64,000 nucleotides of DNA, from positions 1 to 64,000 of the IMG/VR virus record IMGVR_UViG_3300044680_000048. One strand, written 5' to 3'. This DNA is from a virus. Each line of letters starts with the position of its first letter. The stretch's first letter is position 1. This document shows positions 6,360 to 56,282 of the stretch, in pieces. The position numbers and the translations under genes are program-made. Below the pieces are notes generated by a model. It was not told the origin of the DNA, made no database searches, and saw nothing but the letters and a program-made list of their open reading frames with translations.

Positions 6360-6610
6360 AGAATAGAGAAAGAAGTCTTCTATGGCTTGCTGTTATTGCT
6401 TCTTGGACTGTTTCTATTTCTTACGCTCAGTCTGTTTCAGATATTAAGGAAGGGGAAATTAAACTTCTCCGGCACACTATTGATTTATATATTGATGGAA
6501 TAGTTAGAGCAGCAAGACTCTCTGAAATTAAGGTCTATCCAGAGGGTATTGATAATGAAGATATTCCCGAATACTTAGTTCGAACATTAAAGAAACAGAT
6601 AAAGAAATGA
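6356..6610 (+). CDS. small exported/membrane protein (84 aa)
   Basis: ATGA coupling; N-terminal hydrophobic LLWLAVIASWTVSISYAQS. Confidence 0.6.
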   Translation: MKNRERSLLWLAVIASWTVSISYAQSVSDIKEGEIKLLRHTIDLYIDGIVRAARLSEIKVYPEGIDNEDIPEYLVRTLKKQIKK

Positions 6611-6713
6611 AGATAAAGAAAGCCAAATTGCGGAAGATTGAGGTATCCCGCGGTACTTGACTTATCCGTTACATGTAGTATGGTAGAGTTACCACTTAAA
6701 TGGAGTAAAGGCA

Positions 6714-7043
6714 TTGGAAAACAACATAACAGTCCTCATCTATGAAGACTCATTAGAAGACTTGATAGAGGTTGAGGTTTCTCCAGGAGTCTTTAAAAGC
6801 CTTTGTACCATAACTAAGATAGCTAAGATGCCCTTCAGCCACTTTGCTAAAACCGTAGCTCAGTACCAGGGCAGAACGGAAGCTGAATCTTATATGACCT
6901 ATGCTACTAGGGGCTTAGGGGAAGAACTGGATGATAATTTCCCCTGTTTCTCCCATAGAGTAGAAGTTGAGACTGTTTCAATTTGTTTACCTAACATCAG
7001 AGTTCAGCGGGAACTCTTGACTTTGAAATTCGACAGTGTATGA
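6714..7043 (+). CDS. hypothetical protein (109 aa), TTG start
   Basis: ORF track; GGAG 8 nt upstream; TTGACT..TATGGT promoter-like sequence at 6657-6684. Confidence 0.55.
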   Translation: MENNITVLIYEDSLEDLIEVEVSPGVFKSLCTITKIAKMPFSHFAKTVAQYQGRTEAESYMTYATRGLGEELDDNFPCFSHRVEVETVSICLPNIRVQRELLTLKFDSV

Positions 7044-7072
7044 TATGAATTACAAAACGGATGGGAGGCATT

Positions 7073-7273
7073 ATGGATGTCATACAAATTAAAGATGTAA
7101 ATAAGTTCGAATTTATGAATAAACTACTGAGGAAACCTAAAAATGAAAACCCTAATACACAAAAGAAAGATGATCGGAACCAAACAATCCAAAAGTTACA
7201 AACCTATGAAGGAACAACTCCAAGAAGTAGAAGCTTCTATCGAGCAAATGCTTTGGAACAGACTGGAAGTTAA
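7073..7273 (+). CDS. hypothetical basic protein (66 aa)
   Basis: GGGAGG 4 nt upstream of ATG 7073; C-terminal third overlaps the next ORF in another frame. Confidence 0.4.
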   Translation: MDVIQIKDVNKFEFMNKLLRKPKNENPNTQKKDDRNQTIQKLQTYEGTTPRSRSFYRANALEQTGS

Positions 7274-7496
7274 AAAAGAACAATTCTTAAGTAATCTTCT
7301 TAGGTTAACAGAACAACTTAAAGTAGGTACAGCCCATGAAGAGCATAAGGCTCAGTTGGAGATTGAAGGAAAGATTCCCGAAAACGAATCTCACCCTGTG
7401 GGTTCCCGCATGATTATCTGCGGGCAAGAAATTGAGGAAATGGGCAAACGTTGGCAGGTTGCCGGAAGGGCTCTAGAGAAACACAAGAGGGATTAA
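7143..7496 (+). CDS. hypothetical coiled-coil protein (start uncertain, 7143 or 7206)
   Basis: ORF track; helical, heptad-like sequence from MKEQLQEVEASIEQ. Confidence 0.5.
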   Translation: MKTLIHKRKMIGTKQSKSYKPMKEQLQEVEASIEQMLWNRLEVKKEQFLSNLLRLTEQLKVGTAHEEHKAQLEIEGKIPENESHPVGSRMIICGQEIEEMGKRWQVAGRALEKHKRD

Positions 7497-7533
7497 TCCC
7501 CCTCTTTCCCCCCTAAAATGGAGAATTAGAAAA

Positions 7534-7740
7534 ATGGAAATCTGTAAAGCTTGTAATAAAGAAGTAAAGGAACTGTGGAAAGTAGGTTTTGGGATTACCG
7601 GCTATTCCGTCCAGTGTTGTCTATCTTGTAATCTAGACCACAAGAATCTTAAAAATCTGCCGAGAACTTATACCCAACCAGTATCTATTAACTACTTAGA
7701 GAGTTGGGAAGAGCATCAAAAGCTCCATTCTAGGAAATAA
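7534..7740 (+). CDS. zinc-ribbon-like small protein (68 aa)
   Basis: CxxC...CxxC pattern (CKAC..CLSC); GGAGAA upstream. Confidence 0.6.
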   Translation: MEICKACNKEVKELWKVGFGITGYSVQCCLSCNLDHKNLKNLPRTYTQPVSINYLESWEEHQKLHSRK

Positions 7741-7741
7741 A

Positions 7742-8104
7742 ATGGGAACTAATTTTTACTTAGTTAAAAGATGCTCTTGCGGGGAAGCAATAGTGGGAGA
7801 TAAGATCCACTTAGGTAAATCCTCTGCCGGATGGAGTTTTTCATTCCGTGGCTATAGAGGTCCATACAATCCCTATCAAGTTGAGAATATCCAAGAGTGG
7901 AAAGACCTTATAGAGCAGAACTGCTATGAACTAGAAGATGAAAACGGAAATAAGTGGGACATTGATGAATTCTATAAGATCTCCATCGGGAAAGCTCAAA
8001 AAATGATTGACAACGGGAAAATTCCCCGCTATCATGCAAAGGAATTTTGGGAAGATTCTCAAATGATAGACGGGCACTCCTTCAGTTTCGGAGAATTCAG
8101 CTAA
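7742..8104 (+). CDS. hypothetical protein (120 aa)
   Basis: ORF track; AGGAAA upstream. Confidence 0.65.
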   Translation: MGTNFYLVKRCSCGEAIVGDKIHLGKSSAGWSFSFRGYRGPYNPYQVENIQEWKDLIEQNCYELEDENGNKWDIDEFYKISIGKAQKMIDNGKIPRYHAKEFWEDSQMIDGHSFSFGEFS

Positions 8105-8319
8105 TGGTAATGATGAAGATGTCTAGCTCAGCTATATTAAGTATTGATTTTGATCCTTTACAGAATCATCTTGATGTTTTATATAAAAATGAAAGTCTTT
8201 ACCGGTATTATGATATCCCACCGGAAATAGTAGAAGCATTAAACCAAGCAACCAGCAAAGGAAGATTCATTAATGAAACAATTAAGCCAAACTACAGATG
8301 CCAGAGGATTTACAGGTGA
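8104..8319 (+). CDS. KTSC domain protein
   Basis: SSAILSIDFDP..LDVLYKNESLYRYYDIPPEIVEALNQATSKGRFINETIK matches the KTSC signature; ATG 8104 overlaps the upstream TAA. Confidence 0.7.
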   Translation: MVMMKMSSSAILSIDFDPLQNHLDVLYKNESLYRYYDIPPEIVEALNQATSKGRFINETIKPNYRCQRIYR

Positions 8320-8413
8320 TAAATTAATCTGTATTTTCCTTTGGTCCCTCTTGCTTATTCCGTTCCTTGTGTTATCTTTTTTAGGTGGCTGTTTTTCAAT
8401 CTTGAGGCTTTAA

Positions 8414-8632
8414 ATGGATCACCTTCCGCCATATTGGGCATTATTGGACACTAAGAAACCCCTGGTACTTCAAGAACACTTCCAGCAGTGGCAATACTTA
8501 CCTTGCATCTACTGCGACGGGAAGGGAACTTGGAACAAAACAAACGATCCGCAAGAAGAAGAATTCTGCATTAAGTGTGACTCATCAGGTGTTTTAAGAG
8601 AAAGGAGATTTAGCTTATGTTCGAAAACCTAG
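8414..8632 (+). CDS. DnaJ-type CxxCxGxG zinc-finger small protein
   Basis: CIYCDGKG and CIKCDSSG motifs. Confidence 0.55.
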   Translation: MDHLPPYWALLDTKKPLVLQEHFQQWQYLPCIYCDGKGTWNKTNDPQEEEFCIKCDSSGVLRERRFSLCSKT

Positions 8633-8775
8633 AAATTTTTGAGTTTGCGGATGGTTGGGCAGCGAAAGCCCCCAACTTTCTCATCACTGCTGAAACAGAA
8701 GAGAAGTTAAATACACTCTTGGCGGAAATCCTACAAGAAGAATCGGCAAAAATTCTTTTAGGAGTAAAAGTATGA
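8617..8775 (+). CDS. hypothetical protein (52 aa)
   Basis: AAAGGAG 9 nt upstream of ATG 8617; ATGA coupling to the 8772 gene; below track cutoff. Confidence 0.55.
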   Translation: MFENLEIFEFADGWAAKAPNFLITAETEEKLNTLLAEILQEESAKILLGVKV

Positions 8776-9155
8776 AATACTTTCTTCAATACGAAGAGAC
8801 TAGAACCGGTGGAGATGTTTGTGAAGGAGATGAGGGGAACGTGTGGCCCTCATATGAGGATACGGATATTAACTTAGACCTTAAGTTTCTGGCTACAGAT
8901 AGAACAAACTGTACTCATTGGTGTATAGAAGAGTTTGAGTTAGAGCACCCCTTAGATTCCGCTTTTGTTTTAGTTGCTCGATATGCATTTGGAGATACTT
9001 TTAGCAGGACGTGTGGCAATTTTGAATTCTTGGGAATATTCAATTCTGAAGAAGAGGCTCAACTGAAAGCTTCTAAAATTAATGGACCCAAACGTTGGAA
9101 CGACTATTTCGGAGGATTTGAGGGGTTTGAGATAACAGAGGTTCCTATTAAATGA
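8772..9155 (+). CDS. hypothetical protein (127 aa)
   Basis: ORF track; ATGA coupling. Confidence 0.65.
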   Translation: MKYFLQYEETRTGGDVCEGDEGNVWPSYEDTDINLDLKFLATDRTNCTHWCIEEFELEHPLDSAFVLVARYAFGDTFSRTCGNFEFLGIFNSEEEAQLKASKINGPKRWNDYFGGFEGFEITEVPIK

Positions 9156-9370
9156 TCAGAATTGTCTGTCTAGTAAACTATGAGGATGTAGGCTGTTTTG
9201 CCGTAGCCTCTAAGCCTTATCGGAAGCAGGATAATGACTTTTTAACTGACCGGCGGGAAATACCCCTTAAATGGGCACAACAAGCAGTTAAAGCCTGGAT
9301 TAATAGAGGCGGAGATTACCTTTCTGCTCCTTTTGATGGAGTAGAAGATTTTAATCTAATAAGGGCTTGA
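9152..9370 (+). CDS. hypothetical protein (72 aa)
   Basis: ORF track; ATGA coupling. Confidence 0.6.
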   Translation: MIRIVCLVNYEDVGCFAVASKPYRKQDNDFLTDRREIPLKWAQQAVKAWINRGGDYLSAPFDGVEDFNLIRA

Positions 9371-9414
9371 TAATAGAGTATAATAGAATCTTCCCAAGGA
9401 GGGAAATATTTAAA

Positions 9415-9747
9415 ATGGAAAACAATAAAATAAACTGCTTCCGGCAAGGTGATGTTCTTATAGTTAAAATAGAAGAGCTTCCGGCAAACCTTAAACCAGT
9501 TAAACCCACCAAGGTAAGACCAAATCAACATGTTTTAGCATGGGGGGAGTCTACTGGAAATGCACATGCATTAGACGTTAAGGAGTCAAATCTTTTAGAA
9601 ACTCCGGAAGGAGTAAGGTATCTTCAAGTCTTAGAGAGAGCTTACTTGAAACATGAGGAACATCATACTATTGACATTCCTAAGGGAAACTATAGAATAG
9701 TTCAACAAGTTGAGTACCAAAAGGAATTTAGACCGGTAGTAGACTAA
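9415..9747 (+). CDS. hypothetical protein (110 aa from ATG 9415)
   Basis: AAGGAGGG upstream of ATG 9415; the track's TTG 9367 start is less likely. Confidence 0.6.
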   Translation: MENNKINCFRQGDVLIVKIEELPANLKPVKPTKVRPNQHVLAWGESTGNAHALDVKESNLLETPEGVRYLQVLERAYLKHEEHHTIDIPKGNYRIVQQVEYQKEFRPVVD

Positions 9748-9763
9748 CAGGAGCCGTTAAGAC

Positions 9764-10942
9764 ATGACTAAGATTAAAAAGTTGACCAACTGTCAAGAAC
9801 AGGATATGTTAATTTATAGAGAAATATGGTTAGATCAAGGAAGATCTACCGCTCCTCTAGACCTGTTAAGGGTTCAAGATTCTGTAAATGATTTATATTC
9901 TTTAATTGATCTAGAGGCTCCTGCTTTAGTCCATTGCCAGAGTCCTTGGCAAATGGCTTATATGGTTGCCAGTTTTAAGAAAATAGGCAAATTTGAAGGG
10001 AATAATCTAAGGAATAATCTATGGAATAATCTAGGGAATAATCTAAGGAATAATCTAGGGAATAATCTAAGGAATAATCTATGGAATAATCTAGGGAATA
10101 ATCTAGGGAATAATCTAAGGAATAATCTAAGGAATAATCTATGGAATAATCTAGGGAATAATCTAAGGAATAATCTAGGGAATAATCTAAGGAATAATCT
10201 ATGGAATAATCTAAGGGATAATGAATTAGACAAAGAGTTCGCCCAATTTGCAAAAGATTCACATAATTATTGGACGTTCTATTCTCAGTGGTACTTATAC
10301 TGGCTTTCTTTTTATGACTTTCCCCGCTCTATTGGAATTAAATATACGGAAGAAGAGAATAAACAGTTAGACATTTGGCTGGAAGTTTCCAGGTCTGTAT
10401 TTGGGTGTGCAACCTATGAGGGCATCTGTTTTGTTTGTGAACGTCCAACTACTTTAACTGTGGACGCCCAAGGAAGATTGCATAATGAATTAGGACCAGC
10501 TTTAGCCTTTTCGGACGGATATGAGTTATATTATTGGCATGGTATTCAACTCTTGCCGGAAGATTATTCTAAACCTCTTGAAGTAAAGAGAATTGATAAT
10601 GAATCTAATGTAGAAGTTAGAAGAGCATTAATTGAAAAATATGGTCAAGCTAAATATCTCTTAGACTCAGGAGCGGAAAAGCTTCATGAAGATGACTTTG
10701 GAGTACTTTACCGGAAACAGTTAACTGGAGATGAGTCGATCTTTATGGTAAAAGTAGTAAATAGTTCGCCGGAACCAGATGGAAGTTTTAAGGATTACTT
10801 CTTAGGGATTGATCCCAAAGCTTATAGGGATGCTAGTAAAATAACCGCTAAAGCAGCAGTAGCTAGTACTTGGAGATATGAAGGAAATACGGAATATGTT
10901 TTCCCGAATCCTGAAGATTATATTCCTCTAGTAGAGACTTAG
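9764..10942 (+). CDS. repeat protein: N-domain + 18 x NNL[R/W/G] tetrapeptide repeats + conserved C-terminal domain
   Basis: 392-aa ORF, AGGAG 10 nt upstream. The C-terminal region (CERP..LHNE.GPAL.FSDG..YWHG...NVEVRR..IEKYG..) recalls, from memory, a bacterial family of unknown function with period-4 repeats. Confidence 0.8.
   Translation: MTKIKKLTNCQEQDMLIYREIWLDQGRSTAPLDLLRVQDSVNDLYSLIDLEAPALVHCQSPWQMAYMVASFKKIGKFEGNNLRNNLWNNLGNNLRNNLGNNLRNNLWNNLGNNLGNNLRNNLRNNLWNNLGNNLRNNLGNNLRNNLWNNLRDNELDKEFAQFAKDSHNYWTFYSQWYLYWLSFYDFPRSIGIKYTEEENKQLDIWLEVSRSVFGCATYEGICFVCERPTTLTVDAQGRLHNELGPALAFSDGYELYYWHGIQLLPEDYSKPLEVKRIDNESNVEVRRALIEKYGQAKYLLDSGAEKLHEDDFGVLYRKQLTGDESIFMVKVVNSSPEPDGSFKDYFLGIDPKAYRDASKITAKAAVASTWRYEGNTEYVFPNPEDYIPLVET
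10001..10216 (+). repeat. 18 tandem 12-nt units AATAATCTA[A/T/G]GG
   Basis: Read directly: 11 of 12 nt are invariant in all 18 units and only position 10 varies. Order is R W G R G R W G G R R W G R G R W R; 60-nt higher-order copy 10001-10060 = 10121-10180. Confidence 0.97.
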
Positions 10943-10944
10943 AA

Positions 10945-11130
10945 ATGCCTAAATTCTATAAGGTATATGCTGTTGCTTATACTGTTAATGCTGCTTATGC
11001 TGCTAATGCTGCTAATGCTGCTGCTGCTGATGCTAGAGATAAAGTCTTATCGGATTTTGCGGAAGATGTAGTACAGACACTTATAAAACTTAAAACCCCA
11101 GGAAGTAAATATCTTAACTTAACGGAATGA
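10945..11130 (+). CDS. small Ala-rich protein (61 aa) with conserved tail ..AEDVVQTLIKLKTPGSKYLNLTE
   Basis: Starts 3 nt after the repeat-protein gene; tail nearly identical in pattern to the C-terminus of 12055..12984. Confidence 0.6.
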   Translation: MPKFYKVYAVAYTVNAAYAANAANAAAADARDKVLSDFAEDVVQTLIKLKTPGSKYLNLTE

Positions 11131-12054: not shown

Positions 12055-12984
<930 letters not shown>

Positions 12985-19578: not shown

Positions 19579-20847
19579 TGAGACCTACTTTTTTAAGCTG
19601 GGGGGGCTCTACTTTTTTATCAACCTAGACTAAACGACTTCAACTTTACTGTCGTCGCCAATCATCAATCTAAAGGCAATTGGTTTCATCATTCCGCGCG
19701 TCAGTTCTACGTTTACGCCGATCAAGCTGTCTTCGATGCGTCCGTGGAAATCTAAGATTTGGCAATTCTCACGAAGGATGCAGTGCCCGAGTTCTGTATG
19801 ACTTACCCGAGCGCGGTCGCCGATGGAGGTGAAAGGACCAACGTAGCTATCTTCCAACATGCAGTCTTCGCCGATCACTGCCGGTCCGCGCACGACACAG
19901 TTCTTCAAGACGCTGCCTTTGCCGACGTGAACGCGTCCGGAGATGCGCGAGTCACCTTCTGCGGTGCCCAGCATTGATACGTCGGTCATTTCGTCGAGAA
20001 CGACGCGGTTTGCTTCCAGCATGTCGTCTTTCTTTCCGGTATCGAGCCACCAGCTCTGCAAAACGTAGCTATCTACGTGGTGTCCGATGTTGATCAGATG
20101 CTGAATCGCGTCCGTTATTTCCAGTTCTCCGCGCTTGCTAGGCTTGATTTCGTCGATTGCGCGATGAATATTTTTGTTGAACAGATACACTCCAACCAGT
20201 GCCAGATTGGATTTCGGCTTGGCCGGCTTCTCTTCCAGGCAGATTATTCGCCCTTCTTCAGTCAGTTGAGCAACACCGAACGAGCTGGGATTCGCGACCT
20301 CCTTCAAAAGAATGAACGCATCGGCTGTGCCTTCGTTGAAGCGTTTGACCAGGGGCGCAACACCATCTTTGATCAAGTTGTCGCCGAGATACATGACGAA
20401 TGTGTCGTCGCCGAGAAATGGGCGAGCTGTCTTTACGGCGTGGGCAAGCCCTAGCGGCTGCGCCTGTTCGATATAGGTGATTTTGATGCCCCAGTGGCTG
20501 CCATCACCGACGACGGCTCTCACATCCGCTCCGGTTTCAGGGCTGATGATGATACCGATATCGTGTATTCCAGCGCTCTTAATGGCTTCGATGCCATAAT
20601 AAATGATCGGTTTATTCGCAACGGGAAGTAGCTGTTTAGCGGCTGTGTGCGTTATTGGCCGCATGCGAGTACCCTTGCCGCCGCTTAAAATTAGTCCTTT
20701 CATTTTTTGCGCCCTTTTGTGATTCAACCACGCTCTAGTAAGCGCCGCGTAGGACGCTTTTCTGTATAAATCTTAAGAATCAGTTCTACTTTTTTAAGCA
20801 CAACCTTGGCAATCAACTTATTAACACCTGAACTTTTTTAGGTCTCA
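19579..20847. other. GC-rich foreign cassette bracketed by repeats
   Basis: CTACTTTTTTAAGC at 19585-19598 and 20786-20799; TGAGACCTA 19579-19587 versus TAGGTCTCA 20839-20847; composition shifts at both ends. Confidence 0.6.
19630..20703 (-). CDS. rmlA: glucose-1-phosphate thymidylyltransferase, long form (nucleotidyltransferase + left-handed beta-helix)
   Basis: MKGLILSGGKGTRMRPIT..KQLLPVANKP.., LGLAHAV, EKP, hexapeptide-like C-terminal part; ATG 20703 with AAGGG upstream (the track's TTG 20727 is less likely). Confidence 0.88.
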   Translation of the reverse strand: MKGLILSGGKGTRMRPITHTAAKQLLPVANKPIIYYGIEAIKSAGIHDIGIIISPETGADVRAVVGDGSHWGIKITYIEQAQPLGLAHAVKTARPFLGDDTFVMYLGDNLIKDGVAPLVKRFNEGTADAFILLKEVANPSSFGVAQLTEEGRIICLEEKPAKPKSNLALVGVYLFNKNIHRAIDEIKPSKRGELEITDAIQHLINIGHHVDSYVLQSWWLDTGKKDDMLEANRVVLDEMTDVSMLGTAEGDSRISGRVHVGKGSVLKNCVVRGPAVIGEDCMLEDSYVGPFTSIGDRARVSHTELGHCILRENCQILDFHGRIEDSLIGVNVELTRGMMKPIAFRLMIGDDSKVEVV

Positions 20848-27249: not shown

Positions 27250-27443
27250 TTTCTATACTCATCCATATTAATAACATTCTCTTCCGGTCGGACTATTACT
27301 ATTTCATTTACTACAGAGGCATCTACTAGCTCATAAAGAAGGAGGGAAAAGATCTCCTTATTGTAGATTGAATCTTCATCCAGTGTAACAGATTCTAGGA
27401 GTAAAGGGAGCTGTAATCTAAGATCCTTTAATCTAACCTTCAT
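27246..27443 (-). CDS. hypothetical protein (65 aa from ATG 27443)
   Basis: The track's longer start (27530) would overlap rmlB by ~100 nt; the internal ATG overlaps by 11 nt. Confidence 0.45.
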   Translation of the reverse strand: MKVRLKDLRLQLPLLLESVTLDEDSIYNKEIFSLLLYELVDASVVNEIVIVRPEENVINMDEYRK

Positions 27444-28404
27444 CAAAGTAGCTGGTAGCAAAAGCCTTCTTATACCATTCGAGGAGTTCCGGAACACTTT
27501 CTTCAAGGGTGTACTCTGGTTTCCAACCAAGGTTCCTTAGCTTACTACTGTTGACAAAATAACGTAAGTCATAACCTGGTCTATCTTTCACAATTTTGAT
27601 GAGGTTAGAGAATCCGAACAACTCTACTACTTCTTGGGGAGACTTTTCGGCATTAGCAGAAACATTGTAGACTTCTCCGGCTTTCCCTTTCTCTATAACA
27701 GTAAAGATGGCGGAACAATGATCATAAACATGGAGCCAGTCTCTTAAAGCAGGAGTTTCAAAAATGGTAATCTCTTCTCCGGCAAGACCTTTCTTGATGA
27801 TAGTAGGAATTAACTTATCCTGTTGCCGGGTGCCAAAATTATTAGAACAGCGGGTAATTCTTACATCTAAACCATAAGTCTTATGGTAAGAAAGGGCAAG
27901 AAGATCACTAGCTGCTTTACTAGCAGAGTAGACAGAGGAAGGGTTAAGAATTTGGTCTTCATCAAAACCTAGTTCCTTGAGTTCACTACTCCAGTAGGAA
28001 GAATTACTAGACGTGCTATAGCTTCCATATACTTCATCACTCGAAACAATTATTAAAGGAATCTTAAATTCTTTAGCTATTTTACAGATACGGGAAGTAG
28101 CTAAGTAGTTAGTATCAAATAGTTCTGGGTCATCTATAGATGTGTCTACGTTAGACAAAGCTGAAAAATGAGTGATTAATTCCGGATTGTGTCCTTTACT
28201 TAAGATATCCGTATGGATAGAGAGGCATTCCACATTGGCAAAAATTTGATCACATTTAGCTTTTCTATTTTCATCTAGAAGGTTGCTTCCACAGCTTCCC
28301 TCTAACATTCCATCTACGCCCACAACTTTATGTCCAAGTTTGAGGGCAACATCTACAAAGTGGGAACCAATAAAACCAGCGTTTCCAGTAACTAATATTT
28401 CCAT
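27433..28404 (-). CDS. rmlB: dTDP-glucose 4,6-dehydratase-like SDR
   Basis: GNAGFIGSH Rossmann motif, SSDEVYG, YSASKAASD (YxxxK), CSNNFG, RDWLHVYDHC, DRPGYDLRY, LGWKP. Confidence 0.85.
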   Translation of the reverse strand: MEILVTGNAGFIGSHFVDVALKLGHKVVGVDGMLEGSCGSNLLDENRKAKCDQIFANVECLSIHTDILSKGHNPELITHFSALSNVDTSIDDPELFDTNYLATSRICKIAKEFKIPLIIVSSDEVYGSYSTSSNSSYWSSELKELGFDEDQILNPSSVYSASKAASDLLALSYHKTYGLDVRITRCSNNFGTRQQDKLIPTIIKKGLAGEEITIFETPALRDWLHVYDHCSAIFTVIEKGKAGEVYNVSANAEKSPQEVVELFGFSNLIKIVKDRPGYDLRYFVNSSKLRNLGWKPEYTLEESVPELLEWYKKAFATSYFDEG

Positions 28405-28442: not shown

Positions 28443-28697
28443 TCATGGATTTATAGTAGGTTCATTATTCTTTAAGGGTTTCCACCCGGTAGGTTTACAA
28501 CCTGTGCAGGTGGAACCTTTTCTCTTTCTTCTTTGTAGGGCAAAAGCAATAATATTTCTTGGAATACTAAGTTGTTCCCCTGTTTTAGTATGAATTACAA
28601 CTGCTCCATCTTTTATTTCAATATAGTCAAATTCTAGGATCACAGCTGGCGTACTAGGCTGTGGAATACTTTTTTTAGGTTTGTGGCTGTTTGTCAT
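28443..28697 (-). CDS. hypothetical protein (84 aa), last gene of the tail operon
   Basis: ORF track; ATGA-type coupling. Confidence 0.5.
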   Translation of the reverse strand: MTNSHKPKKSIPQPSTPAVILEFDYIEIKDGAVVIHTKTGEQLSIPRNIIAFALQRRKRKGSTCTGCKPTGWKPLKNNEPTINP

Positions 28698-31600
28698 GAA
28701 GTTAAGTGTTCTCCTAAAGGGTCTAATATATCTACTCCATTATATGGAATATACTCTGTTGGAATGTTTTTAAAATTCAGGGGTACAGAAGCACTTGGAG
28801 TATAGATTACACTTCCATTATTATCCAAAGATAACGTAATGATAATCAAGCTAAATGTGTTTGGGGGTGTACCACTAGGAGCACTAATGGGAGAATTGTC
28901 CGCATATAATCTAGTCATCTTGTAAACTGCTATTTTATTAGTATCATACAGCTGAACGGAAGATAAATAAACATGTTCTGGGTCATTTGACCCATCTGTA
29001 GCTGCTCCTAATTCTGTGTTAATGTCTCCTACACTATGTACACCATCTGAGACAAAAGGACGCAACCCTTGATCTGTTAGTAGTAGTGGAAAATTTGGTA
29101 AAAATCCTAATGCTGCGGGGTCAATATTACATATAGGGGCCCCTAAATTGTCAAAACTAATATATGCGTTATCCCATAAAAATGGAGCAATGGGTAAACC
29201 TCCAGCACCTAAACCTGTGAATTCTGGTACTTGTTCAAACGGATCAGAGGGTATAGGCTGGTATTCCTGAACTACTTCACCATAATCAGAGTCCCAATAA
29301 AAATTAACTGCCGTAGGATCGGTAAATGCTGACTCTCCTGGGCAAAATACCCGTTGTCTGAGTAGGGTGCGTTGACCCCCCTTTAGAAATCCAGCTAAGT
29401 ATGTTATATCTATCTCTTGAGTAACAATACTATCCCCAGTAAAGATAAAGTTTGAAAATATCTCCCCATCCGTAGGGAATTGGACAATAGAAGAGGAACC
29501 CCCTCCTAAATTTTTGAATAGAATCCCATAAAATCTGGATGCAAAAGAAGAATTAGCGAAATAATTACAAGGTGCTCCTAACCCCCCTATCTGTTGAAGT
29601 AGTGAACTTCCTTCAACAGATGTATACTGTGCTGTGGGTATAGTAATACTGGCTGAGTAACCATTAGCAACTGCATTTGGTAAATAAGGGTGTAATGTTT
29701 TGAAAGAAGGATCAGGTGGAGGAACTGGAAGGGGATTAGATAGACCATTCCAAATATTAAATACTCCATTAGAGCCTGGTACAACATCTAAAAATTCTGG
29801 ACCTGTATTTCCAGAAAAAGGATCTAGTATATCTGTAGAGTCATAGAATCTATTGTAAGTTAAAATAGGACCCACTCCTGGAGAATAAACTTGGTTAACC
29901 TTTAATGGGTTAATGTTTTTTTGTGGCACAGAGTTCCCACAGGTATAATCAGAGGGTTTCTGAGCAATACTACATACATAGGAGGAAAAACTAGTAGGGG
30001 TAGGCATCCAAGCTACTCTACTAGTCAAAGTTGTGGGAACTAGCGCATAACTTACTCCATTATTGGCAGCTATAGGTGGAAAAATAGTAGGATAGTCATT
30101 AGTGTTTAATACTCCTCTAACTGACCTAGAAGCAGTCAGTAAGGAATATGGACTACCTGATGTAGACCCATCACCACATGTAAAGGTAGCTGGAAGTTCC
30201 CTCTCTGTATCTGTAGTATTTTGTAGAAAATTTACAAAGTTGGAGGTATCAGGCATACATGCATCTACAAATACATCCTTTGAATTACCCTTCCAATCTG
30301 TAATGTTTATGGCAAAATCTTGAAGATAGTTGGGTTCAAGTCCACCACCTTCTATAACATCATAATTAAAGTATTGTTGGGCACCCCCCCAAGTAGCTGT
30401 TACGGGCAAGAGGGGGTAAGTGGTAGAAAGTTCTATTGCTTGATTAGGTAAAAAAACAAGTATAATGTTTTGGGAAAAGTCAAGAGCATTCCCCTGTTCA
30501 GGTGCAGGCGGAGGCCCATAAGTGTATTCACAGTCACTTGTAAAAGTCAAAGGGAGAAGACCCGTATAACCCCCATTAACCAGTTCAGTTACCCAAGAGT
30601 CTCCGAAGACATTAGAGGTATTAGCATCTAATCCATCATACGTCAAGTAATCAGCACCATTTGGACCTGTGGCGTTTTCATGTTTTAGTTTTACTACCTT
30701 ATGTACTGCTACATTCACTGTTACAGTATCAAAAACAACATCCATTACGGGATTATCATCAGAATCTGTCCCAGTAAGTACATAGGATGGAAGAGCCATA
30801 ACCTCTAACCAGTAATCTCTATTTAATAAATGTGGGAAATCAGAAGTAGCATCTTCATATGTGAATGTTAAATCTATACCACTTCTAGATGGATCAGGGT
30901 CTAAAAATCCTCCAATACCATTAGGGTACACTCCCGAACCCCAAGCATCAAAGGTTATAGACTCTTCCCAAAGGGGAGTTGGGGGAATATCAAAATCAAT
31001 TAAGTCATTTATATTTATACTTCCTGTAGTAATTGTGGAACTAGTAAATATTTTTTTATCATTATCTAGAGTGACATTCTTTAAAATCATCCAATGCCAA
31101 ATCATGGCGGATATATTATCATACGTATCATCAATTTGGAGTTCCGACCATAGATAATATAAATGGTTCCCACATTTAGCTACTGAAGGAAAAAGTACTT
31201 GCAGTCCAAATTCAACACCTGTAAGATTAGACGAAGCACTCACTGGTCTGGAAGGACCTAGAGTAGAAGTAATACTATTTAATATATTTGGGTCCATTTT
31301 ATATATATTGAACTTGGAAAGGTCTGGGTATACATTAGAATTACTAAACGGTATATAGTTTGTAGAAGTAGACAAATCTGTGGACTTAGAAACACTCAAA
31401 TATACATCTGCCACATTATTAGTTTTATACTGCGGATAATCAACAGTTAAAAATGTTTCTATATCATTAACATAGTCACTAACAAAGAGATCCCAAGCTA
31501 CAACACCACTTGTTCCCTCAACCGCAAAGAAATTAACTCCTGTTCCTATACAGAAGGCAGTAGTAGCAGAGGTCTTCCGGCAAAGGTCATATTCTTTAGG

Positions 31601-31792
31601 GTTTCCCGTATAGCCTGTTAGCTGATAAGTATTCCCTTGAGGATCAGTACAGGTTGTTCTATCAGCAGATATATGTCCAACAAATGTAACAGTTCCGGAA
31701 TTAGTGTTATTCTGGTTAAGGGTATATGCCTGCATAGCAAGAGCAGCAGCATAAGCTGCTTGTTTCTGGGTGTATTCTTTACCTCTTCCCAT
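28694..31792 (-). CDS. large tail fibre/baseplate-associated structural protein (1032 aa)
   Basis: Size and position distal to the tape measure; Ser/Thr/Asn/Gly-rich beta-type composition; positional inference. Confidence 0.6.
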   Translation of the reverse strand: MGRGKEYTQKQAAYAAALAMQAYTLNQNNTNSGTVTFVGHISADRTTCTDPQGNTYQLTGYTGNPKEYDLCRKTSATTAFCIGTGVNFFAVEGTSGVVAWDLFVSDYVNDIETFLTVDYPQYKTNNVADVYLSVSKSTDLSTSTNYIPFSNSNVYPDLSKFNIYKMDPNILNSITSTLGPSRPVSASSNLTGVEFGLQVLFPSVAKCGNHLYYLWSELQIDDTYDNISAMIWHWMILKNVTLDNDKKIFTSSTITTGSININDLIDFDIPPTPLWEESITFDAWGSGVYPNGIGGFLDPDPSRSGIDLTFTYEDATSDFPHLLNRDYWLEVMALPSYVLTGTDSDDNPVMDVVFDTVTVNVAVHKVVKLKHENATGPNGADYLTYDGLDANTSNVFGDSWVTELVNGGYTGLLPLTFTSDCEYTYGPPPAPEQGNALDFSQNIILVFLPNQAIELSTTYPLLPVTATWGGAQQYFNYDVIEGGGLEPNYLQDFAINITDWKGNSKDVFVDACMPDTSNFVNFLQNTTDTERELPATFTCGDGSTSGSPYSLLTASRSVRGVLNTNDYPTIFPPIAANNGVSYALVPTTLTSRVAWMPTPTSFSSYVCSIAQKPSDYTCGNSVPQKNINPLKVNQVYSPGVGPILTYNRFYDSTDILDPFSGNTGPEFLDVVPGSNGVFNIWNGLSNPLPVPPPDPSFKTLHPYLPNAVANGYSASITIPTAQYTSVEGSSLLQQIGGLGAPCNYFANSSFASRFYGILFKNLGGGSSSIVQFPTDGEIFSNFIFTGDSIVTQEIDITYLAGFLKGGQRTLLRQRVFCPGESAFTDPTAVNFYWDSDYGEVVQEYQPIPSDPFEQVPEFTGLGAGGLPIAPFLWDNAYISFDNLGAPICNIDPAALGFLPNFPLLLTDQGLRPFVSDGVHSVGDINTELGAATDGSNDPEHVYLSSVQLYDTNKIAVYKMTRLYADNSPISAPSGTPPNTFSLIIITLSLDNNGSVIYTPSASVPLNFKNIPTEYIPYNGVDILDPLGEHLTS

Positions 31793-32055
31793 TATTGGGC
31801 GATATAGGAGCCTTGTGCTCCTACTAGGCTTATGGTATCTCCAATTCCTAATGGTCTATTGGTTGCAAGGTAAACATTACTATAAGTGTTCCCATTGGCA
31901 GTTACTGTACAGACAGTATTTCCGGTAGAGTCTGTAGAAATAGCAGAAATGGTAGCCAAACTGGAAGAGTTGTTATTCAGGTTCCCCACAACATTGGCTA
32001 CTACCTGATTGGCTACTTCAAAGGAGATTTGTGTTATTTTATTCTTAAGTCCCAC
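31792..32055 (-). CDS. small structural protein (87 aa)
   Basis: ORF track; coupled within the tail operon. Confidence 0.55.
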   Translation of the reverse strand: MGLKNKITQISFEVANQVVANVVGNLNNNSSSLATISAISTDSTGNTVCTVTANGNTYSNVYLATNRPLGIGDTISLVGAQGSYIAQ

Positions 32056-34372
32056 TTGTTTTAGGTCCTACGTTGAGATAAGGAGTTACCCAGTTAATTT
32101 CTGCATATCTTGCTACTTGAAGAGTTAATATTCCCGGAGGAGTAAAGCTCACTGTTTCTATTATTCCGGTAACAGTCACTTCATCAACAGTAGCGGAAGC
32201 CAACATTCCAGGAACAGGCATTACGCCAAAGAAGACACAATTTATGGTCCCTTGGTAAGTTTTAACATATTGGGTTACATTAGAAGGTACTTGAACAGCC
32301 GCTGCTCCACTTAAACCTTTACGGGTAACAGCAATATCAAAAGAGAAGTTTCCGGCAGCTACATCTGGGTTATTTGCTGGGAAGAACCTACTATCAATGG
32401 TAATAATTGGGGTATACACATTTCCCCGCAAGACAGATGTAATATATGTATCAGCTAAAGGAACAGATTCCGCAAAGTTATACCAAAGTTCTGAATTAGT
32501 TGTAACAATGCTGTAGTTGTAGGAGGCTAGGGAGTTAAAAGAAGCACTTCCGGCATTATTAGGATCAGTAATGAGAATTCGGGCATACACCTCATCATAA
32601 TCAAATGGCAAGTCTATAACAACCGGTGGATCGGAAGTAGTTAATAATTTACTAATACTTCTGACCTGGGTTACGGGCTCAGATGAAGTTCCAGCCGATG
32701 GAGCATTGCCGGAATTACCAGAATTGGAAGGATTGGTTACAAAAATGACATTAGCAAAATTTAATACAGGAGTAGGTATCGAATATACTCCTTGGTTAGG
32801 ACTGAATGGGATAGGAGTCTCAACTCCACCAATTCCATATTCTAAGTCTTCTAATTCTTCCCAGAAGAGTCCATTAGCGGTAATAAGCTTGGCGGAAGGA
32901 ATCGCAAAAGCCCCAATAGAATAGTTAGGAGAACAGACAGTATAATTAAGACCACCACTCCATCTAAGAACTCCCCCTACATATCCCGCAAGAGATTGAA
33001 GAGCAGAGAGTAAAGTCATTGTTGGTTGAATAGTAAACTGTTGGCTTAAAGCATTGTCAAAAGTGGTCCAAGTTAGATTAATTCCCACTCTTCGGGCTAA
33101 AGCAAGAGCTGTTTCTTTAACAGAGAAGTATCTAGAGCTGGTAAGAGGAACTACAACTTCTTTACCCGAGGTGTCTACTGCCAGAGCAGTTTGAGAATTA
33201 GCGAATAGTAGCCCGTATTGGGAAAAATTAGCATTTAATTGATTAAATAACACCGTATTATATAGTACATCAGCAATAGAGGTTCCACCATTAGCACCCC
33301 TACCTAGAATAAAGGAAAGTTGCTTATTTAGTAGAGGACTGCTTGCAAATATCCCCCTAGAAGCATAACCCTTGGCAGAATTTGAAACAATGTTCTCTGA
33401 TCCATTACCACCAGCAGTGATAATTGCGCTTAATCCAAATACACCAATAATGTCCCCATCATTACCAACAGTATTGAGGGAAGTTACACTCCAAGTTCCT
33501 CCTAAATAGTCTAAGCTTAAGGAGAAATTAAACATTTGTCCCCAATTGTTATTAGGAACATTGGAGTTAGGAATATCCACATAAACAGCAGTAGAAGGTG
33601 TTGCCGGAGGCACTCCTATAATAGTTGTTCCCCCAACAGCAACATTAGGACTAAAGGTGTTAGGCTGATAAACTCCATTGATAGTAGTTCCACTAGCAGC
33701 AGTAACACCTACAAGAGTAGCTACCTGTCCCCCAATGTCTACGGTGTATTTACCACCCTCTAATAGGGTTTGACCATAGACCTTAGTAGTGTATGCGGGA
33801 CATTCCAAGATTTGCCCTACTATCTTAACAGTACACTGCCGGTTAAGAATAGGAAGGGGCTCAATAAAAGACTCTTCTGTTCCTAGATTTTCATAGTAGG
33901 TTAATTTGATTATCTGGGAATAATAACTATTAACACCGCTGTTTTCAAAGGAGATATCAGGAGAAGCAGAAGCATAGTTTTCTACTAAGCCCAGATTCTC
34001 ATAATAAGTTTGAGAAACTGTTTGGGTGAAGAAATCCCCAAAACCCCCTACTTCCGTTGCTATTGCCGGAAGTTCGGAATAAACATCCTGAGTTCCTACA
34101 TTTTCATAATATGTCTGACTAACTGTCTGGGAGTAGTAATCATTGAGTCCGGCATTCTCTATTACTGTTCCGGTGGCTATATTCGCAAAGGTCAGAAGAT
34201 ACTGAAACCCGGTATTCTTAAAAGAAGTATGAGTGGAAGTACTTCCTTCAGCAATAAAGGATTGGTAAGCTTTGGCGGAAGACTGATAAGGAGAAGTTAG
34301 TCCAGTATGGGTTGAATTACTGTTCTCATTCTGGAAATTAACATGTACTGGATTGATGTCAAAGTGGGACAC
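32045..34372 (-). CDS. tail/baseplate structural protein (775 aa) with N-terminal ..SQTYYEN.G.. repeats
   Basis: Four ~25-30 aa repeats near residues 70-180; position in the tail operon. Confidence 0.6.
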   Translation of the reverse strand: MSHFDINPVHVNFQNENSNSTHTGLTSPYQSSAKAYQSFIAEGSTSTHTSFKNTGFQYLLTFANIATGTVIENAGLNDYYSQTVSQTYYENVGTQDVYSELPAIATEVGGFGDFFTQTVSQTYYENLGLVENYASASPDISFENSGVNSYYSQIIKLTYYENLGTEESFIEPLPILNRQCTVKIVGQILECPAYTTKVYGQTLLEGGKYTVDIGGQVATLVGVTAASGTTINGVYQPNTFSPNVAVGGTTIIGVPPATPSTAVYVDIPNSNVPNNNWGQMFNFSLSLDYLGGTWSVTSLNTVGNDGDIIGVFGLSAIITAGGNGSENIVSNSAKGYASRGIFASSPLLNKQLSFILGRGANGGTSIADVLYNTVLFNQLNANFSQYGLLFANSQTALAVDTSGKEVVVPLTSSRYFSVKETALALARRVGINLTWTTFDNALSQQFTIQPTMTLLSALQSLAGYVGGVLRWSGGLNYTVCSPNYSIGAFAIPSAKLITANGLFWEELEDLEYGIGGVETPIPFSPNQGVYSIPTPVLNFANVIFVTNPSNSGNSGNAPSAGTSSEPVTQVRSISKLLTTSDPPVVIDLPFDYDEVYARILITDPNNAGSASFNSLASYNYSIVTTNSELWYNFAESVPLADTYITSVLRGNVYTPIITIDSRFFPANNPDVAAGNFSFDIAVTRKGLSGAAAVQVPSNVTQYVKTYQGTINCVFFGVMPVPGMLASATVDEVTVTGIIETVSFTPPGILTLQVARYAEINWVTPYLNVGPKTSGT

Positions 34373-39042: not shown

Positions 39043-42000
39043 TTAAGCAAATTGAGAGTTTAAACTAATAGATGCACCGGTTGATATGGCATCTACCAAG
39101 TCCGTCTTAGAGAGTTGGGAAAGGGTCTTAGAGTTAGTAGCAAGATCCTCCTTTACCCCTTTTATTGCTTCATCAAAGTCTTTCTTTTGTCTATCTTTAT
39201 ATTGGGAAGCTGATTCATTGGCTCTTTTTTCTCCGGTTTTATTAAATCGGTTAACAACTTTGTTGGCCTGTTTTTTTCTAGTATCCTCCGCTTCTTCTTC
39301 TGAGGGAAGACTAAAGTCAAATCCTGAATCTTTCAGTTGGTCTTTAATGTTATTAACTCCAGGATCAACTATTGTTTTTCGTAGAAATGCCTTAAGGGCA
39401 GGATTAGAATCCCCTAATTGAGAAGTGAATTCTTGAGCTTGCCGGAGAAAACTAAATTGTGCATTTAATCTCTCGGTAGGGATGTTAGCTTTCTCTCTTC
39501 GGTTCTTTTTCTGAGATATGTTAAATTCAGATTCAGTATCTGCGTCCTCTTCGGAGCCTCTAAGGTCACTATTCCTATTTAGGGCAGATTGATACTGCTT
39601 TTCAGCCCTATCTCTCTCAAACTGCTTACGAAAGGGATTTTCTAAACCATCTAAACCAGGAAGAAGCGTAGCAGCATTTAGCCTAGATTGGGCAGCATTA
39701 AGTCTATCTGAGAAATCAAACTGGTCTTCTGCGGACTCACCTTTAGCAAGACGACTTCCACCTTGGTCTATTCCAAGAACACCATTTAAAGCCTTCTGAG
39801 CTTCATTAATTTCCCTTTGACGGGTAATGTTATCAGCAATAGACTTATCTAGTGCCTCAAAGCTGTTTTTAGTAATATCTATAACCTTTACTAACCCTTG
39901 AAGTTCGCCAGGAAGCCCTTGGACACTTCCGCCAAGTTCAGAAACTCTATCGGCAGCTGTTAGAATATTTTCTTGTCTATTTAGATGTCTAAGTTCACGT
40001 TCATCCTTAAAATCTTCTTGGGCACGCCCAGTTCTCCTATAGGAAATATCAAGACTTTTGGTCTTATCATCTAGGTCAGCCATGGTATCTTTAAGCTTAG
40101 TAAACCCCTCAATTAGATTAAGGGTAGAACCATAAACATCTAGGGGAAGCTTTTCTTGGTCCCTTTTAAGTCCAGCAAGCTTAGTTTGTTCAGATCTAAG
40201 TTGAGCTTGGTCTTCTTCATTATTACCTGTTCCGTTTGCGACTCTTTTTTTAAGAAGTTCAATGTTAGCTTGAGCAGATTTAATTCCAGCAGCATCAGCG
40301 GCATTTCTTCCACTGAATGTGAAAGTATCAAATCCTTGGGCTCTAATGTTATTTCTCTTTATTTCTAGGTCAATGGACTCTCTAACTGTGCGGGTACCTT
40401 CTGCTATTATCTGTTTACGTTTAAGCTCAGATTCTGCGGAAGCATTGGAGACGGCATTATACTCTTCCGTACCCTTGGTAAGAGTCTTCAACCTTTCAGC
40501 TAAATTAGAAGAAATTTCAGTTTGGGTCTTTAGCCTAGCGTTAATGTCTTGTTGGGCAGCAGAATTCGCCTCTCTGGCTCCACCAATGGTACTCGTGTCA
40601 TAAAGCTTCTGATGTTCTGACTGTAGTGAGGTTTGTCCCTCTTCTATCAAATTGAGAAGAGGTGTTCTCTTGCTTAATTGTTGTTCTTTAGAGAGCCTAG
40701 TTAAACCTGCCAGTCCAGCAGTTGCAGCAGCTATCTGACTAAATGGGTTTTTGCCGGAACTGGCTATAGAGGTAGAATCAAATTTATCTAAATCTTCGGG
40801 CTTAAGTCCATAATCTGCTAATATGTTGTTAAATTTAGCTAGGGGGTTCAACCCTGATTGGAGTCCTGGAGATGTATTCTTGAGATTACCAACATTACCC
40901 CCCGCAGCTTTTAACTTAGCGAGTTGTGCAGCATTAGTTTGCAGCCTCCCGATCTGATTATCTTCTTCTATATCCGCATTGACTTTATCACCAATGCCAG
41001 GAAAAAATGTATTGAGGGCTACACTGTTTTGAACTCCTAGTCCTTTCAAAACGGGATTGTTGCGAATAGTTTCTGAAATTAAGTTCTGTGTATTGGTGTT
41101 ATTTTGTCCTGTTTGTTCAATTAATTTAATAACAACAACAGTAGCAGTGGAGCTAAGATTTCCTATTGCAGCCGCTAAATTTTGAAGATTTTTAGTAATA
41201 GAAGGGTTGGAAATGAACTCATTGAACGCCTTAAGTCCTGGAAGGAGTGCCTTATTTAAGGATTCCCCAGCGTCTGCCTGGGCTGTATTTAGCTGAAACT
41301 GGGCCTTATAAATCTCTGTTAGGGGCTGATTACCATCTTTAATGGCTTGGTAAAACCCCCTTAGAGGTTCAATAGCCTTTTGAATATCTTCGGGAGTCCC
41401 GAAAGATAAAGCATTTTGTAAATCAGGGGCTAAAGCTTGGATAGTGGGTCCAACAGTTGTAGAACTTAATCTCTGTCCAGAACCAATATCACGTAACTCT
41501 CGTGCTTCTTTAGCTTCACCTAAATTGAAAGGCTTTAGGACTGCGGTCAAAACCGGTAGAACGTCCTTAAGTTCACCTTCGGTTGCTTTACCTCGCCTCC
41601 CCTCTTGATACGCCTGTGTTAGAAGAAATTCTTCTTTCCCTCCAACGCCTAGAGGAGCTAGTGCAACTCTAGCCGTCTTCTGAAAACGTGTGGCTATTCT
41701 CTCCTGCTCTCCTAATTGCTCAGCAGGAGATACTGGCTTACCATCTCTAGTAATTTCAGTAGTAGCTTGGAGAAGCCCTACAGTTCCAGCTACCGATTTC
41801 TCAAAATCAAGAGCTACTTCAGAGGCAGATTTAAGAGTATCGAATAACTTCTCAAAAGCTGCTGTAGTAGCAGATACAATAGAAGTTCCAGCCAGAACAC
41901 CCGTTGCTCCACCAAGAGTAGTAGCACCTATTGCTCCACCAATGGCATTAGCAGGACCCCCTAAAAGTCCTGAAAAGAATACAGCCTGTGCTGCTTCTTT

Positions 42001-56203: not shown

Positions 56204-56282
56204 AGTAGGGTAGGGGAGTCTGGTCGTCCCCGCAAGGCTCATAACCTTGAGATCGTGAGTTCAAATCTCACCCTTGCAACCA
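56204..56282 (+). tRNA. tRNA with CAU anticodon (Met; Ile2/initiator not excluded), encoded CCA
   Basis: Hand-folded cloverleaf. Acceptor 56204-10/56272-78 has 6 of 7 pairs with an A1xA72 mismatch. D stem GGGG/CCCC. Anticodon stem CAAGG/CCTTG with loop CTCATAA. Variable loop AGATC. T arm GTGAG-TTCAAAT-CTCAC. Discriminator A plus CCA. Confidence 0.78.

Follow-up and report, generated by a model that had tools for sequence, protein, structure and literature searches.

We analysed a 64,000-nt stretch of phage-like DNA, hereafter the window (positions 1 to 64,000 of IMG/VR virus record IMGVR_UViG_3300044680_000048, a 112-kb contig), with a focus on a tandem array inside a gene that encodes a protein of the DUF6745 family (Pfam PF20530). 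The array (10001-10216, plus strand) comprises 18 units of AATAATCTA[A/T/G]GG, which encode the tetrapeptide NNL[R/W/G] at residues 80-151 of the protein, with nucleotide 10 of the unit as the sole variable site. Concerted evolution together with cassette shuffling very probably produced this pattern. The explanation that we favour as a whole, and consider moderately likely, is that the shuffled-cassette array serves as a fast-evolving contact surface of a phage DUF6745 protein.

Anatomy and assembly of the array

The full 12-nt unit, AATAATCTANGG, occurs in exactly 18 head-to-tail, in-frame copies between 10001 and 10216. All constant positions of the array were identical (198 out of 198), and position 10 was A in eight units, G in six, T in four and C in none, giving the codons AGG (Arg), GGG (Gly) and TGG (Trp). 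A first-pass annotation of the window, made from its letters and open reading frames (ORFs), had described 18 units with variation confined to position 10, and this description proved exact. A degenerate 19th unit, GATAATGAATTA (DNEL; 10217-10228, plus strand), lies at the 3' edge of the array; Tandem Repeats Finder (TRF) reported a period of 12 and 18.7 copies. Outside the array, the 64-kb window held no copy of the unit, with a chance expectation of 0.12 matches.

The array also has a higher-order structure. Segments 10001-10060 and 10121-10180 are identical, as the annotation had noted for this 60-nt copy, and the identity in fact stretches to ~95 nt (9999-10093 and 10119-10213). When the array was compared with itself at an offset of 120 nt, we found one mismatch in 96 nt. 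Written by the letter of the variable residue, the units follow the order RWGRG RWGGR RWGRG RWR, and this period of five units points to block duplication. Codon bias does not explain the uniformity of the array, since the codons in question have minority status in the large ORFs of the window, where CTA makes up 16% of Leu codons, AGG 17% of Arg codons and GGG 15% of Gly codons. From this codon usage, the probability that all 18 Leu codons would be CTA is about 4e-15.

The copy number of 18 and the order of the units rest on one contig from a metagenome. L088, a short-read assembly of the same phage obtained independently, was 100% identical to the window over 6415-10026, which takes in the left flank and the first two units, and ended 26 nt into the array. 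L088 corroborates the existence of the array, and the count of 18 comes from one assembly. In total, three other contigs of the same phage, L088 among them, stopped at this point or upstream of the array. We found no contig spanning the array, and a 25-mer from its right flank had 0 matches in the metagenome and viral collections. Close relatives of the window phage were likewise not found, either as megablast matches among GenBank phages or in a single-protein scan of IMG/VR.

Two contigs from different samples (L089 and L090; window 8458-9843 and 8811-9843) were each 99.5% identical to the window, and both ended at exactly 9843, a point 80 nt inside the DUF6745 gene and well short of the array. 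This shared end may reflect a strain-level break point or a variable segment.

An array exists, but it is conceivable that the assembler made the count of 18, the unit order and the 60-nt copy. Short-read assembly is reported to collapse or misassemble repeats of this kind (PMC9879509, PMC12222747), the exact internal repeat is ~95 nt long, and the L088 assembly breaks 26 nt into the array. Against an assembly construct, the ORF is open, in frame and of a length typical of the family; L088 agrees letter for letter with the left flank and the first pair of units; and the same design recurs in dozens of independent contigs as well as in a GenBank prophage from an isolate genome. We regard this explanation as rather improbable, and it would bear on how many units there are and in which order, leaving the phenomenon itself intact. 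As a practical warning, arrays of this kind break or distort short-read assemblies.

Concerted evolution of DUF6745 arrays

The gene carrying the array (9764-10942, plus strand, taken from the ORF list) encodes 392 amino acids and is preceded by an AGGAG-like ribosome-binding site. Its product matched PF20530 with E=1.7e-42 (145.5 bits, cut-off 27), with residues 197-372 aligned to profile positions 24-195 of 206. All 277 homologues from a database search were PF20530 proteins, and the C-terminal domain alone as query retrieved 7,629 representatives of 50%-identity clusters at E<=1e-3; no characterised member of this large family was found. The annotation had pointed to an uncharacterised bacterial family with xxV[R/W/G] period-4 repeats and a similar C-terminal domain. 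Such a family does exist, namely DUF6745, but its arrays are mostly viral rather than bacterial.

Period-4 arrays of 4-50 units were present in 46 of the 120 best homologues, built from NNLx, SNLx, DSVx, DQVx or DQLx. They start at about residue 57-146, mostly 65-90, between an N-terminal part of ~78 residues and the C-terminal domain. In these 46 arrays, position 3 was always Leu or Val, and position 4 was Arg (252 units), Gly (231), Trp (203) or Glu (64), with Ser, Val, Leu, Met and Lys as minor states. Overall, the design recurs in about 40 independent arrays, each with 4-57 units.

To describe the DNA of the arrays, we used 996 units from 53 arrays on viral and other contigs. The minor-allele fractions at unit nucleotides 1-12 were.06,.38,.04,.01,.00,.01,.00,.00,.01,.51,.12 and.04, respectively. 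Variation peaked at nucleotide 10 (first base of codon 4) and nucleotide 2 (second base of codon 1, giving Asp, Ala or Gly), and nearly all of it was non-synonymous; third codon positions were nearly invariant inside any one array. Among arrays, the constant codons vary. They are AAT AAT CTA in the window and TCT AAC CTG in L001 (54% identical); AAT CTT occurs in L091, whose identity to L001 is 78% when the array is disregarded; and Ser in other arrays is written TCC, TCG or AGC. Because the peptide frame is kept and the DNA is uniform within each lineage but different between lineages, concerted evolution is indicated. This is the classical signature of that process, with the peptide frame held by selection and the DNA homogenised lineage by lineage. 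The annotation had read the DNA identity of the array as recent expansion or concerted evolution; this was the right reading, and it holds family-wide.

The pattern recurs in gp38 of the Mycobacterium abscessus prophage prophiGD102-1, a GenBank prophage with a cultured host; this protein carries 46 units of G[A/G]CCAGCTC[T/C/G]GG. The presence of this array shows that the pattern is no artefact of metagenome assembly.

As perfect direct repeats among replication or early genes, the units could also act at the level of DNA or RNA, for example as iterons or a replication origin, as an array of protein-binding sites or as an RNA element, with coding being incidental. However, relatives keep the peptide pattern and not the nucleotide unit, arrays never leave the reading frame or their fixed site in this one protein, and the window array has no Rfam match (a tRNA was the sole Rfam match in the window). 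A role as a nucleic-acid element is, in our judgement, highly improbable.

The annotation had noted Arg, Trp or Gly at the variable position, and these three turned out to be no special triad. The third base of codon 4 was fixed per array; 29 arrays have G there, 6 have C and 4 have T. Arrays of the NGG type had Arg in 190 units, Trp in 185 and Gly in 212, with minor Glu, Met, Val and Lys; arrays with codon 4 ending in C or T had Arg, Ser, Gly and Asp, and no Trp. Arg, Trp and Gly are thus no more than what the NGG codon box offers when its first nucleotide varies. With Trp (TGG) among the states, homogenisation fixes G as the third base, which results in GGG for Gly and AGG or CGG for Arg even where these codons are rare. 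In this box, the choice of a single nucleotide decides whether the residue has a positive charge, a bulky aromatic group or no side chain, at no risk of a stop codon. That C never occurs at nucleotide 10 in the window is a lineage detail.

Arg was written with one codon only in 27 of the 29 NGG arrays and with a mixture of AGG and CGG in the other two. A single Arg codon per array indicates few founder units and argues against a mutational hot spot at nucleotide 10. This observation bears on the idea that targeted hypermutation (by a diversity-generating retroelement, a sequence-specific deaminase or polymerase error) rewrites nucleotide 10, for which the sharp focus of variation on one nucleotide per unit in many lineages would speak. 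Besides the use of one Arg codon despite the synonymous AGG and CGG, three points count against hypermutation. The unit search, TRF and repeat scans revealed no second copy of the unit that could serve as a template within the 64-kb window; the higher-order block copies show that unit types spread by duplication; and nucleotide 2 behaves alike, with 2-3 states only. No reverse transcriptase was found among the 25 window ORFs scanned against Pfam. We give hypermutation very little credence.

Repeat numbers differed greatly among relatives, a comparison that the annotation had proposed. The homologues P0002 and P0004 have 23 and 4-5 units, respectively, at 78% identity outside the array, and L003 and L019 have 50 and 32 units, respectively, at 82-87% DNA identity in the flanks. 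Even in the closest relatives, such as L003 and L019, the similarity in unit order was no higher than between shuffled arrays. The turnover of arrays is fast relative to protein divergence, though not explosive. The annotation had considered the repeat number to be probably phase-variable. Because the 12-nt unit keeps the frame, a change in copy number alters the length of the protein and cannot switch the gene off, which excludes the on/off sense of the term; the count itself does vary, from 4 to 57 among relatives.

The order of units inside arrays is not random. Identical neighbours were depleted (0.248 versus 0.300 expected, z=-4.5, where z-scores treat related arrays as independent), and adjacent Trp units were observed 45 times versus 69 expected. 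Single-unit slippage predicts the opposite. Moreover, each array retains several unit types. We infer from these patterns that unit heterogeneity is probably selected.

Other short in-frame 12-nt arrays (for example, of RVQV) were seen on viral contigs that carry DUF6745 genes, at 1-75 in L003 and L017, 3293-3343 in L019 and 8817-8961 in L008. Repeat-prone genes may be a general feature of DUF6745-carrying phages.

A candidate contact surface of a phage module

We scanned viral loci and bacterial-genome loci, the latter from species-representative genomes, with the same peptide patterns. Arrays were present in ~33 of 80 viral (IMG/VR) loci versus 1 of 45 bacterial-genome loci. The sole bacterial-genome array was in a metagenome-assembled genome (MAG) of Pyrinomonadaceae, on a 22-kb contig that is cut at the array; the other bacterial-genome loci, mostly from Candidatus Obscuribacterales/Melainabacteria, had non-repetitive linkers. 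On this distribution, the array is an elaboration of the viral copies.

Cellular DUF6745 genes (loci L093-L129) were concentrated in MAGs of Candidatus Obscuribacterales/Melainabacteria. These have several copies per genome, some on megabase-scale contigs, usually with the partner gene described below located upstream.

The DUF6745 gene starts 16 nt past the stop codon of a small gene (9415-9747, plus strand) that encodes 110 amino acids from an ATG at 9415; the mechanical ORF begins at a TTG at 9367. Its product, hereafter the partner, matched phrog_27831 (PHROG E=1.1e-13) and had no Pfam or PDB match. An identical 110-aa protein, P0241, occurs in three other datasets. The partner has the motifs RQGDV, GE.TG.xH, H.EH and a C-terminal VxD, with R10, G12, D13, V14, E45, T47, G48, H51, H80, H83 and D110 invariant and H49 and E82 nearly so, which suggests a putative metal-binding, small His-rich protein. 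By tblastn, a same-strand homologue of the partner adjoined the DUF6745 gene in 24 of 44 genome loci and in 51 of 72 non-redundant viral loci; in the viral loci it lay upstream 42 times and downstream 9 times. Such pairs include gp175/gp174 of the Microcystis phage Ma-LMM01 and gp37/gp38 of prophiGD102-1. The conserved adjacency and motifs indicate that DUF6745 functions in a two-gene module with the partner. Both module proteins have conserved C-terminal residues, in that the partner ends in an invariant Asp (...VAD) and the DUF6745 protein in ...ET.

An AlphaFold2 model built from 110 homologues had a mean predicted local distance difference test score (pLDDT) of 87.4 and a predicted template modelling score (pTM) of 0.76, with pLDDT above 90 in the core (residues 1-70 and 180-390). 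The array was modelled as a pair of long helices (residues 81-113 and 118-152) running out of the globular core and back into it. Candidate shapes for the array are a helical hairpin, a flexible arm or a segment that folds upon binding.

The evolutionary side of our explanation is well supported. The 216-nt array is a coding insertion between the N-terminal subdomain and the C-terminal globular domain, and its identical 12-nt units very probably undergo frequent replication slippage and unequal recombination. These processes duplicate, delete and reshuffle blocks of units and homogenise all nucleotides, synonymous sites included. Each array derives from a few founder unit types (three in the window, one nucleotide apart), which selection probably keeps mixed, preventing takeover by one. 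The shared codon box limits the amino acids available at the variable position, with NGG allowing Arg, Trp and Gly.

In the protein, we propose, the array would form an extended arm off the globular core, possibly helical hairpin or flexible, with Leu or Val at position 3 as a scaffold and position 4 (together with position 1 in many relatives) as a variable exposed stripe. The length and surface of the arm could change quickly and leave the core untouched. The DUF6745 core and the His-rich partner would carry out a conserved activity on a target encoded by the host or a competitor. That the array is an exposed arm is a tentative proposal, and a role in host interaction is more doubtful still. 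Given the siting in an early or replication region and the near-absence of the array in cells, the most likely role for such a contact surface would be host takeover or counter-defence. The cassette-shuffled array and its partner would then mark a candidate host-interaction module under arms-race pressure.

Several observations weigh against the contact-surface explanation. The core function can do without the array, which many phage homologues and nearly all cellular homologues of DUF6745 lack. Nor can turnover be extremely fast, since two samples that share 8 kb at 100% identity have identical 40-unit arrays. The proposed selection on unit heterogeneity is drawn from patterns in the arrays. 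Copy numbers throughout are read from assemblies, in which repeats of this type may be resolved wrongly (PMC9879509, PMC12222747). The pLDDT of the array was just 53-80, and a model of a 50-unit homologue again had long helices at a pLDDT of 41-73. Asn, Gly, Ser and Asp are poor helix formers, and a strict period of 4 gives no straight hydrophobic seam on an alpha-helix, both of which speak against a helical hairpin. A pairing code within such a hairpin was rejected. Folding the window array at its centre pairs every Gly with an Arg and every Trp with a Trp, but 61 arrays in nine fold registers behaved as shuffles, and the pairing in the window follows from its five-unit higher-order period. 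Finally, no match of any kind gives DUF6745 a function. Foldseek found nothing in the PDB (best E=1.4) and only other DUF6745 phage proteins in BFVD; phmmer and profile searches of the PDB gave no match; PADLOC (E<=1) and NCBIfam had none and PHROGs nothing informative; and no paper on DUF6745/PF20530 or the tetrapeptide motif was found in the searchable literature.

Low array pLDDT is also what a functionless, disordered linker would give, growing and shrinking through slippage-prone phage replication as a neutral low-complexity expansion. The composition is disorder-prone and rich in Asn, Gly, Ser and Asp, the copy number lies anywhere from 4 to 57, array-less homologues hold unrelated linkers at the same site, and amino-acid tandem repeats (aaTRs) of Borgs are mostly disordered regions (PMC9879509). 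Under neutrality, however, drift to one unit type or a build-up of synonymous differences would be expected. The arrays instead keep the xx[L/V]x frame across lineages with different codons, including TCN or AGC for Ser. Their changes are limited to one or two residues with synonymous sites fixed, and at least three unit types occur at similar frequency in every array. Identical neighbours are depleted, Trp-Trp above all, and Trp takes up ~23% of the variable position. We consider a neutral linker unlikely.

The annotation had also conceived of a solenoid or nucleic-acid mimic, in which stacked tetrapeptides would imitate DNA in a beta-solenoid and block a DNA-binding host defence. Shortened by one residue, the pentapeptide consensus A(D/N)LXX looks much like the unit [D/N/A/S]-[N/S/Q]-[L/V]-x. 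The composition of the unit is turn-friendly, and the gene lies in a phage early region. Yet the array had no Pfam pentapeptide (PF00805) match at E<=1, and AlphaFold placed low-confidence helices in two members, although pentapeptide beta-helices are normally recognised. A common stacking period was tried and rejected, as the autocorrelation of position 4 was weak at lags 3, 5 and 6 (z ~2-2.5). The array is inserted into a domain whose two ends have to meet, and a hairpin fits this better than a solenoid. The net charge of arrays ranged from -0.48 to +0.44 per unit and was +8 for the window array; with no consistent acidity, a general role as a DNA mimic is unlikely. Taken together, we judge the solenoid or mimic quite improbable.

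A bolder idea is a programmable, modular reader, in which each tetrapeptide would read one unit of a periodic ligand and Arg, Trp and Gly (or Glu, Ser and Asp) would form a one-residue code. The helix rise of a tetrapeptide, ~6 A, is near the nucleotide spacing of an extended single-stranded nucleic acid. We hold this reader to be a long shot. If it were true, the phage would retarget the protein by reshuffling 12-nt cassettes, the DUF6745 core and the His-rich partner would supply the enzymatic or effector activity, and the whole would be a minimal phage recognition system resembling transcription activator-like (TAL) effectors. TAL-effector repeats are units of 33-35 residues with two variable residues and a proven one-repeat-one-base code. 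By analogy only, they resemble the window array in a constant scaffold that is repeated many times and near-identical in its DNA, in variation of the specificity codons alone and in reshuffling by recombination.

Among DUF6745 proteins, both Ma-LMM01 gp174 and prophiGD102-1 gp38 match the window protein in their N-terminal subdomain and in the motifs of the C-terminal region, and the conserved partner gene precedes them as well. The 46 units of gp38 read [D/G]QL[W/R/G] and vary at nucleotides 2 and 10 only, whereas the window units read NNL[R/W/G], with position 1 constant and a single variable nucleotide; gp174 has no array. The gp37/gp38 pair of the M. abscessus prophage and the gp175/gp174 pair of the Microcystis phage are tractable entry points for work on the module.

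Further afield, the WD40 repeats of high internal conservation (HIC) in the fungal NOD-like receptors (NLRs) het-d and het-e evolve in concert except at a small number of codons, which are hypervariable and belong to the binding surface (PMC12222747). The window array and its family show the same near-identity of DNA, few variable codons and differences in repeat number among relatives, and HIC repeats too are polymorphic in number and trouble short-read assembly (PMC12222747). They differ in having units of ~42 residues, a beta-propeller fold and the ligand HET-C (PMC12222747), as opposed to a 4-residue unit carried by a phage. Borg aaTRs are perfect in-frame repeats that evolve fast and are almost entirely missing from the host, and they resemble the window array in a unit length divisible by three, a location in ORFs of mobile elements and an often low predicted order (PMC9879509). 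Unlike the window array, they arise in many unrelated genes and are usually perfectly identical (PMC9879509); DUF6745 arrays are confined to one family and one fixed site and have a conserved peptide frame and a maintained variable residue.

Pentapeptide repeat proteins (PF00805; Qnr and MfpA type) are similar in their small or polar, Asp/Asn, Leu and variable positions, but the window array has a period of 4 rather than 5, no PF00805 match, no predicted beta-helix and no consistent acidity. Contingency loci likewise contain slippage-prone tandem repeats within a gene; the 12-nt unit of the window, by contrast, keeps the frame and changes length, not on/off expression. The array is neither a pentapeptide-repeat protein nor a contingency locus nor a target of a diversity-generating retroelement, as it lacks a defining feature of each, which for the retroelement is a template copy within the 64-kb window. 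New in the array are the minimal unit of four residues, the single variable nucleotide, the codon-box logic, the restriction to phage copies and the conserved partner, none of which we found described in the searchable literature.

Domains of the protein and genome context

The array separates two conserved parts of the DUF6745 protein. The N-terminal subdomain (residues 1-79; 9764-10000, plus strand) was predicted with a pLDDT of 87-97 to contain helices at 9-26, 34-46 and 61-73 and a strand at 54-58, and Y45, P53 and P61 are its conserved residues among the 110 homologues. The C-terminal globular region (10229-10942, plus strand; pLDDT above 90) includes the Pfam match at nucleotides 10352-10879 and carries the motifs GRLH, HG, E.N.E.RR, DDFG.LY, MVKVVNS.PEPDG and a C-terminal ET. 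In the same 110 sequences, H240 (in GRLH) was invariant, and G252, G260, N282, E284, R286, R287, N333, E337, D339 and G340 were at least 90% conserved.

Long DUF6745 proteins have N-termini that are mostly unannotated. One of 730 residues, P0369, has an N-terminal DUF4388 (PATAN-like) domain and two ClpX-type C4 zinc fingers; as a domain fusion, it may hint at protein-protein or adaptor functions and is not decisive. The gene neighbourhoods of the bacterial homologues P0112 and P0072 gave no functional clue. The DUF6745 genes on viral contigs adjoin genes for DNA polymerases, DnaB, primase, single-stranded DNA-binding protein, methyltransferases, uracil-DNA glycosylase, terminase and portal proteins.

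Downstream of the DUF6745 gene, an ORF of 61 amino acids (10945-11130, plus strand) starts 2 nt after its stop codon and may be co-transcribed with it. The product consists of an Ala/Tyr/Asn repeat and a C-terminal segment, DVVQTLIKLKTPGSKYLNLTE, which is paralogous to that of the 309-aa protein encoded at 12055-12984, making the short ORF a mini-paralogue. The 309-aa protein belongs to a second repeat-diversified gene, 1 kb downstream. It has a conserved N-terminal domain (PGxMCVEAAVCYA.GLPH...), an Ala-rich array (12502-12855) and the conserved C-terminus FAE.VVQ.LI....PG..WL.LTE. In its array, 127 of 132 codons are NNT (GCT in 85, followed by TAT, GTT, AAT, GAT, ACT and CCT), so that it likewise combines homogenised DNA with variation that is only non-synonymous, here at a 3-nt period. 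More than 908 homologues of this protein were found, many of them on ~40-kb contigs, and 119 of the 120 listed have no Pfam family, with one assigned to PF05403. A link to Imm5-like immunity was considered and rejected; an Imm5_like gene lies near P0019, yet the Ala-repeat neighbour has no Pfam match and no listed homologue is of the Imm5 type.

The window as a whole is phage-like, with an SU10-type major capsid protein (52761-53954), a DUF6582 protein (53965-56139) and many small ORFs. Beyond these two proteins, the structural module is largely unrecognisable. Four very large ORFs of 775-1446 amino acids (28694-31792, 32045-34372, 39043-42690 and 58498-62838) had no Pfam match and at most a weak PHROG match. 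Three genes resemble auxiliary metabolic genes, encoding a sugar-nucleotidyl transferase with a hexapeptide-repeat domain (19630-20727), an NAD-dependent epimerase/dehydratase of the GDP-mannose 4,6-dehydratase type (27433-28404) and a patatin-like phospholipase (57222-58061). A single tRNA-Met gene (CAT; 56204-56282) lies on the plus strand amid minus-strand structural genes.

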